DNA of 50,023 nucleotides from Thermoprotei archaeon (GCA_003650815.1 QMSB01000003.1:1-50023), one strand, 5' to 3'; positions 37,676 through 48,702 are shown, numbered from the stretch's first letter. The notes: a model not told the origin generated them from the letters alone. Translations and numbers: made by a program.

Positions 37676-38665
37676 TTATAACTCTATTTTTACTCTGAGT
37701 TTAACCGCATGTCTTCTGCTAAGGTACACTAAGGTCTCTAGTATTTCTTCTTGGGATAGTCCTGTGCTTCGAGATATTTCATCTATGAGAGCATGTAGTG
37801 GAACTGTTTTTGAGCCTTTAGAGATTAGTGAGAGAACCGCCATTATTCTCGCATATTTTTTAGAGGAGGATTCTTCCATTATTTTCTCAAAGTACTCTAT
37901 TATTTCCTTTATTTGATTCTCTAAATCAGATACTTCAGCGAGATATACTCCGTTAGCTAGCTCAGCAGAAGCCTTTATTATATTACTTCTTATTACTCTT
38001 ATCCTCTCAAATCTTACTCTAGCTTCTTCGGCTTTCTCAAGTGATATAAGTGGCTTGATTTGATAGTAGAGCTTAGCGGCTGCTTCGCAAAGTTCTAGGA
38101 CTGTAGTTAGCCTCTTCTTGTAGTTCTGGTCAAACCTATATAGAAGGCACTTTATTTCTCTATAACTCTTTTTAAGTTCATCTGCTAAAGCATAGGGATC
38201 CGGGATATCAGGATTTTGTAGTATGCGCTGACTTTTCCTCTCTAACCGCATTAGATTAGAGTATATATTTTCATCTAGTTTTCTTACTACCTCCTTGTTT
38301 TTATCAATTTTGCTTAATATTCTTTTTAACTCTTTTTCAGCCTCTAGACATTCCTCAAGTCCTTTAGCGTATCTAGTTAGTAGTTCTAAGTAGCTCCTTA
38401 ACTTTGTCCCGTACTCTTCTAGGTTTTTCTCCAAATTCCGAGAAATCCCATAGACTGGTGGAGGCTGTGGGGGAGTGTTCGACTTGATAAAGTTTTCGAA
38501 AAGTGGTTTTACTACAGAATCTTTATTGCTCGAGTATCTCTCGTTAAGCAGATTGATTATGCTCTCTACTTGTTTCCTAAGCTCTGATACTTCATTTACT
38601 TTTCTGGACAGTTCGTTTAAAAGCTGATCTAGGGTTTTCTCCTTAGTTACTACTCTAAGTTTCAC
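37676..38665 (-). CDS. Coiled-coil/helical-bundle protein with a C-terminal winged-helix-like domain
   Basis: Long amphipathic helices, a PPQPPP linker, and the C-terminus LHALIDEISRSTGLSQEEILETLVYLSRRHAVKLRV. Confidence 0.7.
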   Translation of the reverse strand: MKLRVVTKEKTLDQLLNELSRKVNEVSELRKQVESIINLLNERYSSNKDSVVKPLFENFIKSNTPPQPPPVYGISRNLEKNLEEYGTKLRSYLELLTRYAKGLEECLEAEKELKRILSKIDKNKEVVRKLDENIYSNLMRLERKSQRILQNPDIPDPYALADELKKSYREIKCLLYRFDQNYKKRLTTVLELCEAAAKLYYQIKPLISLEKAEEARVRFERIRVIRSNIIKASAELANGVYLAEVSDLENQIKEIIEYFEKIMEESSSKKYARIMAVLSLISKGSKTVPLHALIDEISRSTGLSQEEILETLVYLSRRHAVKLRVKIEL

Positions 38666-39340: not shown

Positions 39341-40030
39341 ATGAGACTAGAGGAGGCTAAGTTAAGGGCTGCTGAAAAAGCGCTAAAGATGGTTAAGGAT
39401 GGTATGGTTTTAGGCCTTGGCTCCGGCTCTACTGTGGCTAAATTTATTAAGCTTCTTGGAGAAAAGATTGGCTACGAGTTTACCGAGATTTATGGTGTTC
39501 CCTCGTCCTATGATACTGAAATTTTAGCTAGAGAAGTAGGCATAAAAATAGTTTCCTTAAACGATTACTTCCCAGATCTAGCAGTTGATGGAGCTGATGA
39601 AGTTGATAGAGATTTTAACTTAATAAAGGGGGGAGGAGGTTGCCATACCCGAGAGAAAATCGTCGATTACTCTTCAGGAGAATTCGTAGTTATAGTAGAT
39701 TACACTAAGCTAGTTACCCGCCTCGGTTTAAGAAAACCTATACCCATTGAAGTGCTTCCTTTCGCGCTAAGATTAGTAATTCGTACTCTTTCAAGGCTTG
39801 GCAGAGCGGAGATTAGACGCTGTAAGGGAGGAAAACTTGGTCCAGTCGTGACTGACAATGGAAACTTTATAGTTGATCTGAACTATGGTAGACCAATAGA
39901 GGATATTGAAGCACTTGATAGAGAGCTGAAATCTATACCTGGAGTTATTGAGACAGGACTTTTTTATGGCAGTAAAGTGTCTAAGGTTGTGGTCGGATAT
40001 CCTGATAGAGCCGAAATATTATTTAAGTAG
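39341..40030 (+). CDS. rpiA: Ribose-5-phosphate isomerase A
   Basis: GLGSGST, DGADEVD, IKGGGG..TREK, PIEV, TDNGN, PGVIETGLF. Confidence 0.96.
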   Translation: MRLEEAKLRAAEKALKMVKDGMVLGLGSGSTVAKFIKLLGEKIGYEFTEIYGVPSSYDTEILAREVGIKIVSLNDYFPDLAVDGADEVDRDFNLIKGGGGCHTREKIVDYSSGEFVVIVDYTKLVTRLGLRKPIPIEVLPFALRLVIRTLSRLGRAEIRRCKGGKLGPVVTDNGNFIVDLNYGRPIEDIEALDRELKSIPGVIETGLFYGSKVSKVVVGYPDRAEILFK

Positions 40031-41068
40031 CTTGATGAAACCAGGGTGTTCTCTGGAGCCAACAGCTACTTGATATGTCTTTTCTCCTGAGGACTTGACT
40101 TCAACAAGTACTCCGTTTATCACTACTTTCTCTTCCTCTGAGAATATTCCCGAATAAACTCCATTAAAGCATACTAGTTCTTTAAGAGATTCCCTAAATA
40201 TATGAGAAACATTTAGTGGTTTTATCTTATAGGTATATGGGAAAAAGAGAGATTCCACAGGATCCAGTATTACAGCTTTAAGTTCTATTCTGCCAATAAC
40301 CCTATATACTTTTTCTCCATACTTTTCTCTAACTTCTTCAGGTTTTCTCACGAAAGATACTGAGAAATTCTTGTTAAGAAATACACCTTTATCAACTTTT
40401 CTTCTGTATATCTCCTTTGCGGTCTCTGGAGGCACATTGTATACTTTTATGATCTTGTTTACCCACTCTTTATCGCATTTTGAGATATCCATATTTTTCA
40501 GGACATCTAGTACTTTCCAGGATTCACGCAGCCCGTAAATTACTAGATTTATATCTGAGAACCTTTCGTTATGTATCTTTAAGAGAATAGATCCTGTTAC
40601 CCCTAGGCTTTTTAGCGGGATATTGCTACGAGAAGACAGTTCTTTTGCGAGTTCTACCGCTATGCTTTCTAAGTTGCTCAAATTTTTCTCCTTAAGTAAT
40701 TCACCTAAGCGTTTTTCTGGCATATAGTGCTCATCTATGCATATTATGGGTATTCCTACTACTTTGCAGCCTAATACTTTATCGTAATAAACATATTCTC
40801 TGAAAAGTTCTTCAGCCATTTCTATACTTTTAGAGATCTCTTGAATAGAGTAAGTTTTGATCAACCTTATGTACACCTTGCCCTCTCTCTTCCATACGCT
40901 TTTACCCTTTTCCGCGACTAGATACTTGGGAAATGATATTACTTTAGCTAGAGGATGCAGATAACCTACTACGCACGCAATTAGTCTTCCTGCTTGGATG
41001 TAATCTTTGTCTAGGTAAGGTCTAGTTGACTGAACTTCATGTAAGTAATGTTTTTTCTTCACACTCAT
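40019..41068 (-). CDS. Predicted nucleotidyltransferase (archaeal pol-beta-like family)
   Basis: VVGYLHP, PKY, GVTGSIL...SDINLVIYG, C-terminal OB-like region ending VGSRE. Confidence 0.78.
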   Translation of the reverse strand: MSVKKKHYLHEVQSTRPYLDKDYIQAGRLIACVVGYLHPLAKVISFPKYLVAEKGKSVWKREGKVYIRLIKTYSIQEISKSIEMAEELFREYVYYDKVLGCKVVGIPIICIDEHYMPEKRLGELLKEKNLSNLESIAVELAKELSSRSNIPLKSLGVTGSILLKIHNERFSDINLVIYGLRESWKVLDVLKNMDISKCDKEWVNKIIKVYNVPPETAKEIYRRKVDKGVFLNKNFSVSFVRKPEEVREKYGEKVYRVIGRIELKAVILDPVESLFFPYTYKIKPLNVSHIFRESLKELVCFNGVYSGIFSEEEKVVINGVLVEVKSSGEKTYQVAVGSREHPGFIKLLK

Positions 41069-41140: not shown

Positions 41141-42004
41141 ATGGACTTGTATAGCAATCTACTACTTGGCTTCATTGTGACGCTGGCTATAGGTCTTCCC
41201 TCTTATAAAAAGAAATTCGTTAGCTTCTCAGGACTCTTCGCAGGTCTGGTCGTCGGCATGCTAACTTTTGTTGGAGGCCCCGCTTGCTTTTTAGTAATAA
41301 TGGTGTTTTTCCTTAGTTCAAGTATATTAACTAAGCTAGGTTACCACTCCAAGGAGGTTAAGGGAGCAGCTGAAAAGAAAAGCGGTAGAACAGCTCTCCA
41401 AGTAATATGTGCCGGCGGAGTAGCTGGTGTTGCCGCTTTCCTTAAAGGACTTTATGAAGCGAGAGCCCTTATTTGGCCTGACCCAAATCAGCTGTCACAT
41501 GTTCTCACAGTAGCTTTTCTCGGAGCTGTGAGCTCAGCTAACGCTGATACCTGGGCTGTTGAATTAGGTCTTCTTTCAGAAGAAGAACCTAAGCTGATAA
41601 CTAACTTGAAGAAAAAGGTTCCGCCCGGTACTTCAGGAGGAGTCACGAAACTAGGAACTTTAGGATCTTTCCTAGGAGCTCTCTTAATAGCAGCTGTCTC
41701 AGCCGCGCTTTACCAACATGTTTCTCCTCCCTTTGAACAAATGGATCCGCTAGCTATACTTATTATAACTTTCATATCAGGTTTTACTGCCGAGAAAATA
41801 GATAGTTTCCTTGGAGCTACCGTGCAGGTAAAGTATTGGTGTCCCAAGTGTAAGAAAGAGACTGATAAAAAAGTACATAAGTGTGGTAGCTCAACAGAGT
41901 ACCTACGAGGAATAAAGATAATCAGCAATGAGGCAGTCAACTTGATCTCCACTTTAGCAGGAGCTCTTCTGGCGTCCTGCCTCTACATAGCGCTATATGA
42001 TTAA
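41141..42004 (+). CDS. DUF92/TMEM19-like membrane protein with a Zn-ribbon insert
   Basis: FFLSSSILTK, GRTALQV, ADTWAVELG, VPPGTSGGVT, DSFLGATVQ..CPKC...HKCG, NEAVN. Confidence 0.9.
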   Translation: MDLYSNLLLGFIVTLAIGLPSYKKKFVSFSGLFAGLVVGMLTFVGGPACFLVIMVFFLSSSILTKLGYHSKEVKGAAEKKSGRTALQVICAGGVAGVAAFLKGLYEARALIWPDPNQLSHVLTVAFLGAVSSANADTWAVELGLLSEEEPKLITNLKKKVPPGTSGGVTKLGTLGSFLGALLIAAVSAALYQHVSPPFEQMDPLAILIITFISGFTAEKIDSFLGATVQVKYWCPKCKKETDKKVHKCGSSTEYLRGIKIISNEAVNLISTLAGALLASCLYIALYD

Positions 42005-42266
42005 CATGCCTCGACCTAAAGACTTGAGATTTTATCAAGAGCGCTTAGACTTGTTTTATAGACTTAAGTTCTCTAAGTGTACTGTCAGATGGCATGCATA
42101 CGAGTATTTAATATTGTGCAGAGACTTTATTTGCGTCATACTCTTAGAACCTTGGAAAAGCAAAGCATCCTTATATTTTCGCGGAAACACTAGTAAAGTA
42201 GAGAAACTAGCCAGTATTTTGGAAGAGTATTCTCTTAAAGATATAGAGATTGTAAAGCTAGCCTGA
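41997..42266 (+). CDS. Hypothetical protein
   Basis: 89-aa ORF overlapping the DUF92 stop. Confidence 0.6.
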   Translation: MINMPRPKDLRFYQERLDLFYRLKFSKCTVRWHAYEYLILCRDFICVILLEPWKSKASLYFRGNTSKVEKLASILEEYSLKDIEIVKLA

Positions 42267-42291
42267 AGTTATTCAAGCTCGTAGAGATAGA

Positions 42292-42298
42292 TTTATTA
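42292..42298 (+). promoter_or_regulatory. TATA-like element for the candidate ncRNA
   Basis: TTTATTA lies 24-30 nt upstream of G42322, after a purine-rich BRE-like stretch. Confidence 0.45.
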
Positions 42299-42321
42299 GA
42301 AAGAAAAGAAAAATATTACCT

Positions 42322-42473
42322 GGAGCCCGCCGGGGAAAGTGGGGCATTGTTCGGCATCTCAAGTTAAGTGCCTCAGTGAATCATTTTTAAGGAAAACAGC
42401 GATGATGATTCAAGTGATGTCTTTGATTCAAGAAAACATTATTAAGTTTATTAAGCCCCCAATGGCGGGCTCA
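42322..42473 (+). ncRNA. Candidate bulge-helix-bulge-closed ncRNA (circular RNA precursor)
   Basis: GAGCCCGCC/GGCGGGCTC 9-bp helix, GGGG/CCCC 4-bp central helix, and 3-nt bulges AAA and AAT in canonical orientation; internal hairpins. Confidence 0.6.
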
Positions 42474-43142
42474 GAATTCGTACTTTTCTCCAGGCTTCAG
42501 TATTACGACTTTTGTGCCTATACCTTTATCTTCAACAGCTTTCTGGAAATCTTTGGGATCCTTGTCTATAGGTGGGAATGTTCCATAGTGCATTGGTATC
42601 GCTACCTTAGGCTTAATTAGCGTAATGAACTCTGCTGCTTGAAGAGGATCCATTGTATATAGCCCGCCGATAGGCACTAAAGCTATATCTACTGGGTAGA
42701 GATCTGCATATAGTTTAATGTCGTAGAATAGCCCTGTGTCTCCTGCGTGATATATAGTTGCTTCTTTTCCTCTAATTACGTATCCTACTTCTCTACCTCT
42801 TTCTGCTGAGTGAAAAGCTGGTACGAGTATTACTTCTATGTCTTTAATTTTAATACTCCCGCCGATATTCATTCCATAGGCTTTCCGGACTCCCTGATTG
42901 TTCATATAGTTGGCTAGCTCATATATACCCGCAAAGGCCGCACCAGTCTTCCTGGCTATTTTTACAGCATCTCCTAGGTGATCCCCGTGGTCATGCGTTA
43001 CTAAGATTAAATCTGCACGCTTAATCTCTTCTATTTTACACGCTGCCTTGGGATTTCCAGTTATCCAGGGGTCGATTAATATTGTTCTGCCATCTAGAAA
43101 AATCTCAAAAGCTGCGTGTCCGAGCCACTTAACATAGCCCAT
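42471..43142 (-). CDS. UPF0173 metallo-beta-lactamase-fold hydrolase
   Basis: WLGHA, IDPW, THDHGDHLGD, AFHS, YHAGDTG, PMHYGTF. Confidence 0.92.
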   Translation of the reverse strand: MGYVKWLGHAAFEIFLDGRTILIDPWITGNPKAACKIEEIKRADLILVTHDHGDHLGDAVKIARKTGAAFAGIYELANYMNNQGVRKAYGMNIGGSIKIKDIEVILVPAFHSAERGREVGYVIRGKEATIYHAGDTGLFYDIKLYADLYPVDIALVPIGGLYTMDPLQAAEFITLIKPKVAIPMHYGTFPPIDKDPKDFQKAVEDKGIGTKVVILKPGEKYEF

Positions 43143-47015: not shown

Positions 47016-47813
47016 TTGATAGCCGTGGTTGAGATAAAGCGTTTGTCCACTGGAATACGCGAATTAGATAAAATACTCTGTGGAGGAATACCAGAGGGGT
47101 TCTTCGTTACTCTTACAGGAGAACCAGGCACTGGGAAAACTATAGCCTGTTTACACTTCATCTGGGCGGGATTGACTAATTTAGAGAAATGTATTTATGT
47201 AACAACAGAGGAGAGCAGAGAGAGCATAATTAGGCAAGCTGCTCAATTTGGAATGAATTTTAGGAAAGCTTTAGATAACAATAGATTAATCATAATAGAC
47301 GCTCTTATGAAAGAAAGGAATGATTATTGGAGTTTAAGAGAAGTTACTTTAGAAGAACTTTTAAGAAAAGTTATTGAAGCAAAAAAAGAGCTAGGCTCTC
47401 CGTGTAAAAGGCTAGTAATAGATTCTCTTAGCGCTTTCTGGCTTAAGGCTCCTTCTCTAGCTAGACAAATCAGCTATGATCTCAAAAGAATACTGAATAA
47501 GTGGAGATTTACAATATATGCTACTAGCCAGTATGCTATAACTACTGGTTCTGCATTTGGATGGGGTGCTGAACACATAGCTGACGGGATTATTAGATTT
47601 AAGCGCTCCATCAGAAGGGGGAGGCTCAGGAGATATATTCTCGTCGAGAAAATGAGGCAAACTCCTCATGATCTTAGAGTATATGAGATAGATATTGTGG
47701 ATAAAATTGGGCTCGTGGTGCTGGGTCCTATAGAAGAACGCATAGAAGACCATGTTTTACCGAAAAGAGTTATGGAAAAAATAAGAAGGGTTACTGAGGA
47801 AAGCAGACCTTAG
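47016..47813 (+). CDS. Single-domain KaiC/RAD55-family ATPase
   Basis: RLSTGI..LD..GGIP, GEPGTGKT, TTEES, LVIDS, TSQYAITT, EHIADGII, EKMRQT.H. Confidence 0.92.
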   Translation: MIAVVEIKRLSTGIRELDKILCGGIPEGFFVTLTGEPGTGKTIACLHFIWAGLTNLEKCIYVTTEESRESIIRQAAQFGMNFRKALDNNRLIIIDALMKERNDYWSLREVTLEELLRKVIEAKKELGSPCKRLVIDSLSAFWLKAPSLARQISYDLKRILNKWRFTIYATSQYAITTGSAFGWGAEHIADGIIRFKRSIRRGRLRRYILVEKMRQTPHDLRVYEIDIVDKIGLVVLGPIEERIEDHVLPKRVMEKIRRVTEESRP

Positions 47814-48702
47814 CTTCTAGACACCTGTTTTTCAGAAAGCATATCTTACAGAGTTCGCTCCTACAGTAGATTTTGTCGTGTATATAAAATAGTGTTTGAA
47901 GCCAGCCAGACAGCTTTCCAAAGGTTTGTGAGAAAAGACTTCTTAAACAGTCGCCAGTTAAGGGACATTCTTCGCATGTGTATTTAAGGCAGTACCTTTT
48001 AACTGGTAGTTTACTAAACCTAATTAAGTTAAGCTTCTTCACCATGGATATTAAGTGTTTATCACATGGTACAGCTTCTGTGCATGCTTCAGCAAACAAT
48101 AGATAAGCGTCCGCTATTTTGGGCCCACACCATCTACACTTAAGTATGTTTCTTCTGATCTCCCAAAGATCCGCGCTCTTTCGACTTATATTCAAATCAA
48201 TATAGTCTTTCAATGCTAATGGTAATTGTCTTAATTGAAAACTCGTTCCAATGAGTTTTAAGTTTCCTCGGACTATTTTCCCTAAGTCCCCCTTCGACAT
48301 GAGCCATAGCTTTTTGCACCAATTTACGACATTCTTATGGTAGTCTGTTCTCCTTGAGAGAAATATTGCTATGAAAATGTATTCTTTATCTAAAGGATTT
48401 ACTGAAAGTCCTACATCAGCATAATACTTTGTAAACGCTTTAGCTACCCATAGACTTTCTCCTTTCACTTGTGAAATATATGCGAGGGGATTAAACCATA
48501 GGCCTATAGTATACTTGAGGAGTTCATATGAAAGACTAGTGTAGATTACTCCGTTATCTCTTACTTCAATTAGTTTACCTTCATCTAAGCCGACTAGTTT
48601 AACATATTTATTTTTATCAATCTTCTCATAGAGAGCTAAATTGAATGAAGGATAGAAGGTGCGTTCTAAGTTAAAAGACTTGGAAAACTTTATTTTCCTC
48701 AT
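47791..48702 (-). CDS. HhH-GPD-superfamily DNA glycosylase/lyase-like protein with Cys clusters
   Basis: FLSRRTDY, HhH CGPKIADAYLLF, PCDKHL, plus CLKYTCEECPLTGDC and CRSELCKICFLKNRC. Confidence 0.8.
   Translation of the reverse strand: MRKIKFSKSFNLERTFYPSFNLALYEKIDKNKYVKLVGLDEGKLIEVRDNGVIYTSLSYELLKYTIGLWFNPLAYISQVKGESLWVAKAFTKYYADVGLSVNPLDKEYIFIAIFLSRRTDYHKNVVNWCKKLWLMSKGDLGKIVRGNLKLIGTSFQLRQLPLALKDYIDLNISRKSADLWEIRRNILKCRWCGPKIADAYLLFAEACTEAVPCDKHLISMVKKLNLIRFSKLPVKRYCLKYTCEECPLTGDCLRSLFSQTFGKLSGWLQTLFYIHDKIYCRSELCKICFLKNRCLEAKVCFPQ

Follow-up and report, generated by a model that had tools for sequence, protein, structure and literature searches.

A putative stand-alone gene for a bulge-helix-bulge-flanked, predicted circular RNA in a genus of Thermoprotei

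Circular RNAs released at bulge-helix-bulge motifs

Plagens et al. 2015 (PMC4731332) described one of the closest systems, in which Thermoproteus tenax and T. uzoniensis have a permuted gene for a circular SRP RNA. According to that report, a 23-nt leader and the trailer of the T. tenax gene pair into a motif of the bulge-helix-bulge (BHB) type, and a TATA box precedes the start by 26 nt. The T. tenax SRP RNA is cut by the recombinant endonuclease, the mature RNA is circular, and circularisation in Thermoproteus repairs a rearranged universal RNA (PMC4731332). A preliminary description of the locus analysed here had named this maturation of a permuted SRP RNA as a precedent, in agreement with the published account.

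The locus is located in a stretch of 50,023 nt, referred to below as the window, from the genome of a Thermoprotei archaeon (GCA_003650815.1; G000). It includes a 150-nt inverted structure on the + strand (42323-42472) between the convergent ORF89 and hydrolase genes. Like the SRP RNA genes of T. tenax and T. uzoniensis, this element is free-standing, belongs to the same class and has a TATA box ~26–30 nt ahead of the start; in both cases the leader and trailer form the BHB motif, the endonuclease has two subunits and the middle piece is circular, here by prediction (PMC4731332). The cargoes differ: ligation restores the order of the recognisable, G+C-rich universal RNA encoded by the permuted SRP gene, whereas the cargo of the element matches no family and has a G+C content of 37% (PMC4731332). 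The SRP system was also studied by experiment, whereas the element is known from its sequence alone (PMC4731332).

In archaeal 16S and 23S pre-rRNA processing stems, too, a long flanking helix carries the BHB motif and excision gives a circle, but the rRNA circles are intermediates that are re-opened inside an operon, whereas the element would be monocistronic with a 125-nt cargo (PMC12558985). No 16S gene is present in the assembly of G000 or in that of G001, the second species compared. Another small RNA that the tRNA-splicing enzymes release in circular form, as is predicted here, is the box C/D guide RNA of the tRNA-Trp intron, which is functional and persists as a circle; it has a tRNA host and C/D boxes, whereas the element is hostless and its interior has no box D in either species (PMC12558985, PMC3326292). 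For Haloferax volcanii HVO_1309, Schwarz et al. 2020 (PMC7714728) described a BHB intron in the 5' UTR that is likewise an endonuclease substrate, is neither tRNA nor rRNA and gives a circle. There, however, the spliced mRNA is the product, whereas the joined flanks of the element would form a hairpin of ~26 nt with a tail (PMC7714728).

If excised introns and the intermediates of rRNA processing are set aside, the literature searched has one archaeal RNA that is made as a circle from a BHB scaffold of its own, namely the permuted SRP RNA of Thermoproteus. A free-standing BHB gene for an orphan circular RNA is not reported there, the supplementary circRNA tables of PMC3326292, PMC7714728 and PMC12558985 aside. 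The processing route is already known; both the cargo and the notion of a gene that serves only an orphan circle are new.

Organisation of the element, its promoter and its neighbours

The G000 assembly comprises 1.99 Mb and is 85% complete; G001, the one other species of the genus, is 99% complete. Direct reading of the G000 sequence confirmed the helices, bulges, inner pairs and TTTATTA sequence given in the preliminary description. The features of the locus are as follows.

41997..42266, + strand: upstream neighbour ORF89 (not in the element), conserved, 89 aa
42283..42298, + strand: predicted promoter by the tRNA-promoter matrix, with a BRE-like, purine-rich stretch and then TTTATTA (42292-98) as the TATA box
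42321..42323, + strand: predicted transcription start, 0–2 nt before the first paired base
42323..42331, + strand: outer helix, 5' strand (leader), GAGCCCGCC; 9 Watson-Crick pairs with 42464-72
42332..42335, + strand: central 4-bp helix, 5' strand, GGGG; same sequence in G001
42336..42338, + strand: 5' bulge, AAA (AUA in G001); predicted cut 42337/42338
42338..42462, + strand: predicted excised piece, 125 nt in G000 and 123 nt in G001
42341..42345, + strand: predicted circle-closing helix, 5' arm, GGGGC; partner of GCCCC 42455-59
42353..42372, + strand: hairpin GGCAT / GTGCC, kept in G001
42377..42412, + strand: hairpin TGAATCAT / ATGATTCA, G000-specific as drawn
42455..42459, + strand: predicted circle-closing helix, 3' arm, GCCCC; overlaps CCCC of the central helix
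42457..42460, + strand: central 4-bp helix, 3' strand, CCCC; partner of GGGG 42332-35
42461..42463, + strand: 3' bulge, AAT (AAA in G001); predicted cut 42462/42463
42464..42472, + strand: outer helix, 3' strand (trailer), GGCGGGCTC; in G000 shares bases with the hydrolase stop codon
42471..43142, - strand: convergent metal-dependent hydrolase of the MBL fold (not in the element), Pfam Lactamase_B_3; NCBIfam NF001911, 265 bits
42484..42487, + strand: TTTT run, possible (weak) terminator, antisense within the hydrolase CDS; G000 only

Both bulges are located 3' of their own strand of the central helix, a polarity that we take, from the tRNA numbering, to be that of a tRNA intron at 37/38. In tRNA introns, the splicing cut falls after the second bulge base, and the predicted excised piece of 125 nt (42338-42462) follows from applying this rule to the geometry of the element. 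Inside the bulges, the pairs G42339-C42456 and U42340-G42455 are possible; the resulting helix of 2 bp compares with a threshold of at least 2 bp for the inner flanking helix of a BHB motif. In G001, the outer helix is ~50 nt clear of the hydrolase gene and does not overlap it. G001 also lacks a run of four T residues at the position of the G000 TTTT, and no clear terminator common to both species was found.

A matrix derived from 32 tRNA promoters of G000 was used to score promoter sequences. Upstream of these 32 tRNA genes, A is present at -34 to -32 in 23–30 of 32 and T at -28 in 26 of 32, with an A/T run from -27 to -24. The sequence upstream of the element scores 6.1 in G000 (top 0.28% of genome positions) and 9.9 in G001 (top 0.02%), and +1 is best placed 2 or 1 nt ahead of the first paired base in G000 and 1 or 0 nt ahead of it in G001. 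The layout in G001 is the same, with TTTATAT as the TATA box, which starts 30 nt before the helix; in the two species, the TATA box starts 30–31 nt upstream of the helix, though the remaining spacer is not conserved. The earlier proposal of a free-standing unit with a promoter of its own is borne out as a prediction by this BRE/TATA placement and by the high matrix scores. The placement argues for an independent transcription unit, in which the leader would be just the 5' strand of the stem, as has also been described for the SRP RNA gene of T. tenax (PMC4731332).

No host for the motif was found by tRNA, Rfam and ORF/Pfam searches, in agreement with the preliminary description, which had found no tRNA, rRNA or credible CDS to carry it. 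ARAGORN detected no tRNA in the whole window, and no Rfam family reached its gathering score there; a sensitive Rfam scan of 42150-42650 returned one noise match, snoZ30, at E=5.4. The sole + strand ORF across the element (42339-42620, 93 aa) has no Pfam match.

The surroundings are of housekeeping character and include genes for an EF-Tu-like GTPase, ribose-5-phosphate isomerase, succinyl-CoA synthetase, a KaiC-like ATPase, a ferredoxin-type protein and DUF92, and no mobile, CRISPR or origin-related genes were found among the scanned neighbours. ORF89 overlaps the DUF92 gene at the latter's end and could be assigned to neither a Pfam nor an NCBIfam family; with homologues in 32 of the 41 genomes of the order, it represents an unnamed conserved small protein. 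Further ORFs of the window without a Pfam match are located on the - strand at 40019-41068 (349 aa), 37676-38665 (329 aa) and 47791-48702 (303 aa), the 349-aa ORF having no NCBIfam match either.

Rarity, conservation and folding of the motif

The G000 genome was scanned on both strands for the strict succession of helix, 3-nt bulge, 4-bp helix, 3-nt bulge and helix using a weighted pair score, with three block-shuffled genomes as the control. At a score of at least 42 and an excised piece of at most 300 nt, the element (score 42) is the single match in 1.99 Mb, as compared with 0, 0 and 0 matches in the shuffled genomes. At a score of at least 38, there are 6 matches in the real genome versus 1, 1 and 3 in the shuffles, and loose BHB-like geometries are abundant (2731 in the genome). 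Other top-scoring motifs, on contigs C8 and C134, were rejected as artefacts formed by oppositely oriented tRNA gene pairs. On C134 (G000:C134:149-4116), divergent tRNA-Asn and tRNA-Arg genes lie between the two endonuclease subunit genes, which are separated by ~3.5 kb; the 5' halves of the two tRNAs resemble each other and imitate a bulge-helix-bulge in the scan. In G001, the two subunit genes are found on C4 with the same spacing.

The element is present in one copy in G000 and one in G001, and a search of the window for its 13-nt arm returned a single occurrence. With one copy per genome, it does not qualify as a dispersed repeat, and the many-copy MITE-like inverted repeat that the preliminary description had allowed for was not found.

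A homologue, 72% identical, was detected by BLAST only in G001 among 60 relatives. The G001 locus is syntenic, with the order hydrolase, element, an 88-aa ORF and DUF92. A BLAST match in G017 covers 24 nt in a coding region and was judged to be due to chance. Searches with a covariance model in 41 genomes of the order found the element in G000 and G001 and in none of the 39 others; the matches in G008 and G000:C4 (E ~0.9 per genome) were dismissed, having broken pairs, different neighbours or an A+T-rich sequence. When 120 genomes of the class were searched with a pattern, no homologue was detected in the 118 others, the matches in 12 other genomes being all G+C-rich, unlike the element, and dismissed by eye. 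A motif scan 3' of 28 ORF89 homologues gave a best score of 33, as compared with 42 in G000 and 39 in G001. In genome contigs, a 16-nt motif retrieved, among the matches listed, chance bacterial ones only. A 23-nt motif was found only on the G001 contig among genome contigs, on one contig identical to G001 in metagenomes and on none of the viral contigs. The element therefore appears to be confined to one genus, as far as could be searched. As the metagenome contig duplicates G001, there are two distinct sequences only, and covariation amounts to one comparison.

In that comparison, the central helix and the 3-nt length of both bulges are unchanged, and the bulge bases differ (ATA and AAA in G001). 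In the outer helix, numbered inside-out, the pair at position 2 changes from C-G in G000 to U-A in G001, that at position 7 from G-C to C-G and that at position 8 from A-U to G-C; the last two changes can alternatively be read as one paired C/G insertion. The G001 outer helix has 8 bp, one C x U mismatch and then two more G-C pairs. The preliminary description had proposed a check of the motif in relatives, and between G000 and G001 the BHB geometry is indeed conserved with changes on both strands.

Four-fold degenerate sites in neighbouring genes are 33–47% identical between G000 and G001, and the spacer upstream of the TATA box is 52% identical, as compared with 49% when shuffled; hence, neutral DNA is saturated between the two genomes. 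In the interior of the element, 95 of 130 aligned columns (73%) are identical versus 0.50 ± 0.024 in shuffled alignments. For tRNA introns of the same two genomes, used as a control, the values are 28/34 (82%) for Ala and 45/66 (68%) for Tyr. As the interior identity falls within the range of tRNA introns, it indicates constraint, but not a function of the cargo beyond that of an intron.

The G-U pair of the inner helix can form on the + strand only, as can the one that arises from the change in hairpin 2 (GGCAT/GTGCC). Together with the canonical bulge polarity, these pairs assign the element to the + strand. A reading of the minus strand was rejected: the fold has a similar z-score (-3.6, as compared with -3.7 for the minimum free energy (MFE) fold on the + strand), but the bulges have the mirrored polarity and a promoter is lacking.

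The outer helix has a pair probability of 0.8–1.0 at 37–85 °C, and that of the central helix is 0.79–0.81 at 37 °C and 0.36–0.45 at 85 °C. The inner 2-bp helix can be drawn in both species and has a pair probability of at most 0.01 at 37–85 °C, and the strict motif is 2–3 kcal/mol above the MFE when forced. An alternative GGGGC/GCCCC pairing competes with the central helix. In the MFE structure at 37 and 75 °C, the 3' bulge is present as a 3-nt bulge, whereas the 5' bulge opens into a multiloop. The low probability of the inner helix and the cost of the strict motif thus indicate that the robust fold is a relaxed helix-bulge-helix-loop form. The endonuclease geometry called canonical in the preliminary description is accordingly retained for the outer helix, the central helix and the bulges, whereas the term is too strong for the inner helix, the predicted pairing of which is compatible with the relaxed bulge-helix-loop form only.

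The predicted excised RNA, its processing and alternative explanations

The interior of the element has a G+C content of 37–38%, which is similar to that of the genome (40%), the values being 66% for 5S rRNA, 70% for tRNAs and 64–65% for tRNA introns. At 37%, as compared with 66–70% for the structural RNAs, it resembles spacer more than a folded RNA of a thermophile. The preliminary description had drawn the excised piece as a four-arm circle. All four hairpins can be formed in G000, and arms 1 and 2 are kept in G001, whereas arms 3 and 4 are not. The GGGGC/GCCCC helix is the closing stem in both linear and circular folds of the interior, and all 5 of its 5 pairs are invariant in both species, so that covariation is neither shown nor broken. 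In the GGCAT/GTGCC hairpin, 4 of 4 scorable pairs hold in G001, one with an A-U to G-U change, and the fifth pair is gapped. The 8-bp hairpin (arm 3), read in the same register in G001, keeps 2 of 7 scorable pairs and has 5 of 8 unpaired; at its position RNAalifold gives a shorter helix with 2 double and 2 single changes. Arm 4 (TGATGT/ACATTA) loses 2 of its 6 pairs in G001.

An Rfam search with the linear element returned noise only, in line with the earlier view of a non-coding RNA without a recognised family, and searches for known RNAs pointed in the same direction. A tRNA or permuted tRNA was rejected, as ARAGORN was negative in the window and in the doubled interior of both species. For SRP RNA, there is no RF01857 match at E<=10 in 42150-42650, and G001 has a full-length SRP RNA of the linear type elsewhere (164.8 bits); 5S rRNA is present at other loci in both genomes. 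Box C has the consensus RUGAUGA and box D the consensus CUGA, with the guide beside box D. A C-like GTGATGT is conserved in the element, but neither interior contains CTGA on the + strand, and the box C/D match in Rfam had E=5.4 and 14.7 bits, as compared with a gathering score of 50. The best complement for an antisense action, 19 of 20 nt, is A+T-rich and located in a long ORF on C94 (E=0.056), and was judged to be due to chance. RNase P RNA was rejected as well, there being no RF00373 or RF02357 match.

RNase P in this genus deserves separate mention. In G000, the BRE/TATA of the tRNA genes is at a fixed distance from the mature 5' end, the TATA box being centred near -26/-27, and this fixed distance implies leaderless pre-tRNAs. 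These would be consistent with a missing RNase P ribonucleoprotein (RNP) and are reminiscent of Nanoarchaeum equitans. RNase P RNA of the RF00373 family is found in 34 of the 41 genomes of the order, with no match in G000 or in G001 (85% and 99% complete, as given above); there is also no match to the type-T model RF02357, a control for which matched nowhere either. The proteins Pop5, Rpp30 and Rpp29 are absent from G000 and G001 and present in three relatives. Conversely, HARP (TIGR03875) is encoded at G000:C36:13083-13619 (-) and G001:C2:69693-70223 and is absent from the three relatives. Judging from these gene contents, the genus may use a protein-only RNase P. In the account of Daniels et al. 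2019 (PMC6380272), no archaeon was found with HARP but without the RNP proteins, and a 2024 review agrees as to HARP-bearing archaea. In G014 and G018, which belong to another family of the same order, there is no RF00373 match despite the presence of Pop5, Rpp30 and Rpp29; the RNase P RNA of these two may be divergent, split or permuted.

Each of G000 and G001 has two PF01974 genes, one strong (106 and 102 bits, respectively) and one weak (42 and 46 bits), a pattern as expected for the putative catalytic and structural subunits of the splicing endonuclease EndA. RtcB is encoded in G001 (610 bits) and was not found in G000, the assembly of which is 85% complete. The splicing enzymes that the earlier reading presupposed are thus encoded in both genomes as regards EndA, and in G001 as regards RtcB. 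Introns are abundant in the tRNAs of G000, 18 of the 33 ARAGORN calls being intron-bearing. The tRNA-Leu(UAG) gene at G000:C8:8454-8582 has a 41-nt intron that is apparently absent from the best G001 match (C9:39573-39680), in which the matches of the two exons adjoin each other at 39635; if so, two species of one genus would differ in whether this intron is present. The two-subunit endonuclease family has been described as the most relaxed in substrate choice, with a tRNA context being unnecessary (PMC4731332).

From the geometry, rarity and conservation of the motif, its promoter and the endonuclease genes, we infer transcription, cleavage, ligation and any function of the product as follows. 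Transcription would start from the element's own BRE/TATA promoter at ~42321-42323, at the foot of the outer helix. The 16-nt leader and the trailer would pair into a G+C-rich stem of 13 bp (9 + 4 bp) with two 3-nt bulges four bp apart. The two-subunit endonuclease would cut each bulge behind its second base (42337|38 and 42462|63), and RtcB would ligate the ends of the middle piece to give the 125-nt circle, the joined leader and trailer forming a by-product hairpin. In the circle, the conserved GGGGC/GCCCC helix would close across the ligation point, and the remainder, which is A+U-rich and conserved in blocks, would be mostly unfolded at the growth temperature. The circle would presumably act via a bound protein or by base-pairing, and circularity would shield the fragile A+U-rich RNA from exonucleases and heat. 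On balance, it seems probable, with moderate confidence, that the element is a stand-alone gene, the leader and trailer of which serve only as a processing scaffold, that releases a circle of 125 nt (123 nt in G001).

A rather unlikely alternative is a linear small RNA that is not cut at all, with the G+C-rich terminal stem as a clamp at high temperature and bulges that are incidental or bind a protein. The promoter, conservation and strand evidence are equally compatible with it, the inner helix of the strict motif is not predicted, and the alternative GGGGC/GCCCC pairing is as conserved. However, the exact 3-nt/4-bp/3-nt spacing is kept while the adjacent helix and bulge bases change, and a motif of such quality occurs once in the genome and in 0 of 3 shuffles. 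An exposed stable motif should moreover be cut, as the two-subunit endonuclease is the most relaxed (PMC4731332). It is improbable that the element has no gene of its own and is the structured tail of the DUF92/ORF89 operon, or a stabilising or terminating stem between convergent genes. Its position, 56 nt after the ORF89 stop and overlapping the hydrolase stop in G000, with convergent genes on either side and the TTTT run downstream in G000, would suit such a role. Yet archaeal termination requires T-runs, not hairpins, and the T-run is not common to both species; 125 nt of conserved loop would be unnecessary for a terminator, the tRNA-type BRE/TATA lies at a fixed 30–31 nt in both species, and 28 other ORF89 loci of the order lack such a stem (best score 33 versus 42 and 39).

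A DNA-level element, in which an inverted repeat with an A+T-rich core is bound by a dimeric protein, as in a replication origin or recombination site, is considered very unlikely. The G+C-rich inverted arms around ~120 bp of A+T-rich sequence fit this explanation, and parallel changes in the arms would also preserve the symmetry of a palindrome, but 3-nt offsets on opposite strands would be meaningless for a DNA palindrome and the G-U pairs are possible on the + strand only. The element is, furthermore, single-copy, and the 15 neighbouring ORFs scanned (35.5–48.7 kb) include no gene for Orc1/Cdc6, an integrase or a mobile element. A small protein gene, either the linear + strand ORF or an ORF of the circle, is held to be equally hard to credit. 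A 32-codon frame would run in the circle from the ATG at 42417 across the 42462/42338 junction to the TAA at 42388-90, and a frame with the same length, start block and stop block is present in G001. In its 23 ungapped codons, however, substitutions are spread evenly over the codon positions (5, 3 and 5), the four-fold sites are all identical (5 of 5), as compared with 33–47% in neighbouring genes, and the reading frame of one conserved block differs between G000 and G001. The linear ORF of 93 aa, for its part, meets a stop after 21 codons in G001 and has no Pfam match. The circle ORF is read as incidental, and a role of the circle as a messenger, its frame closing only after circularisation, would be very surprising; if it were translated, it would be the first archaeal protein-coding circular RNA from the tRNA-splicing machinery. 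Least probable of all is a functionless inverted repeat formed by chance. The frequency of loose BHB geometries in the genome (2731) lends itself to such a view, against which stand the rarity of motifs of this quality, syntenic conservation amid saturated neutral flanks and the conserved promoter.

On the sequence evidence, the element is thus best explained as a gene for a non-coding RNA, stand-alone and lineage-specific, in a thermophilic member of the Thermoprotei. If its predicted release as a circle is true and the gene has no evident purpose other than to deliver an otherwise unknown RNA in this form, the tRNA-splicing enzymes would offer archaea a general way of making dedicated circular RNAs, and a 16-nt leader and a trailer of ~10 nt would represent a compact natural scaffold for circularisation.
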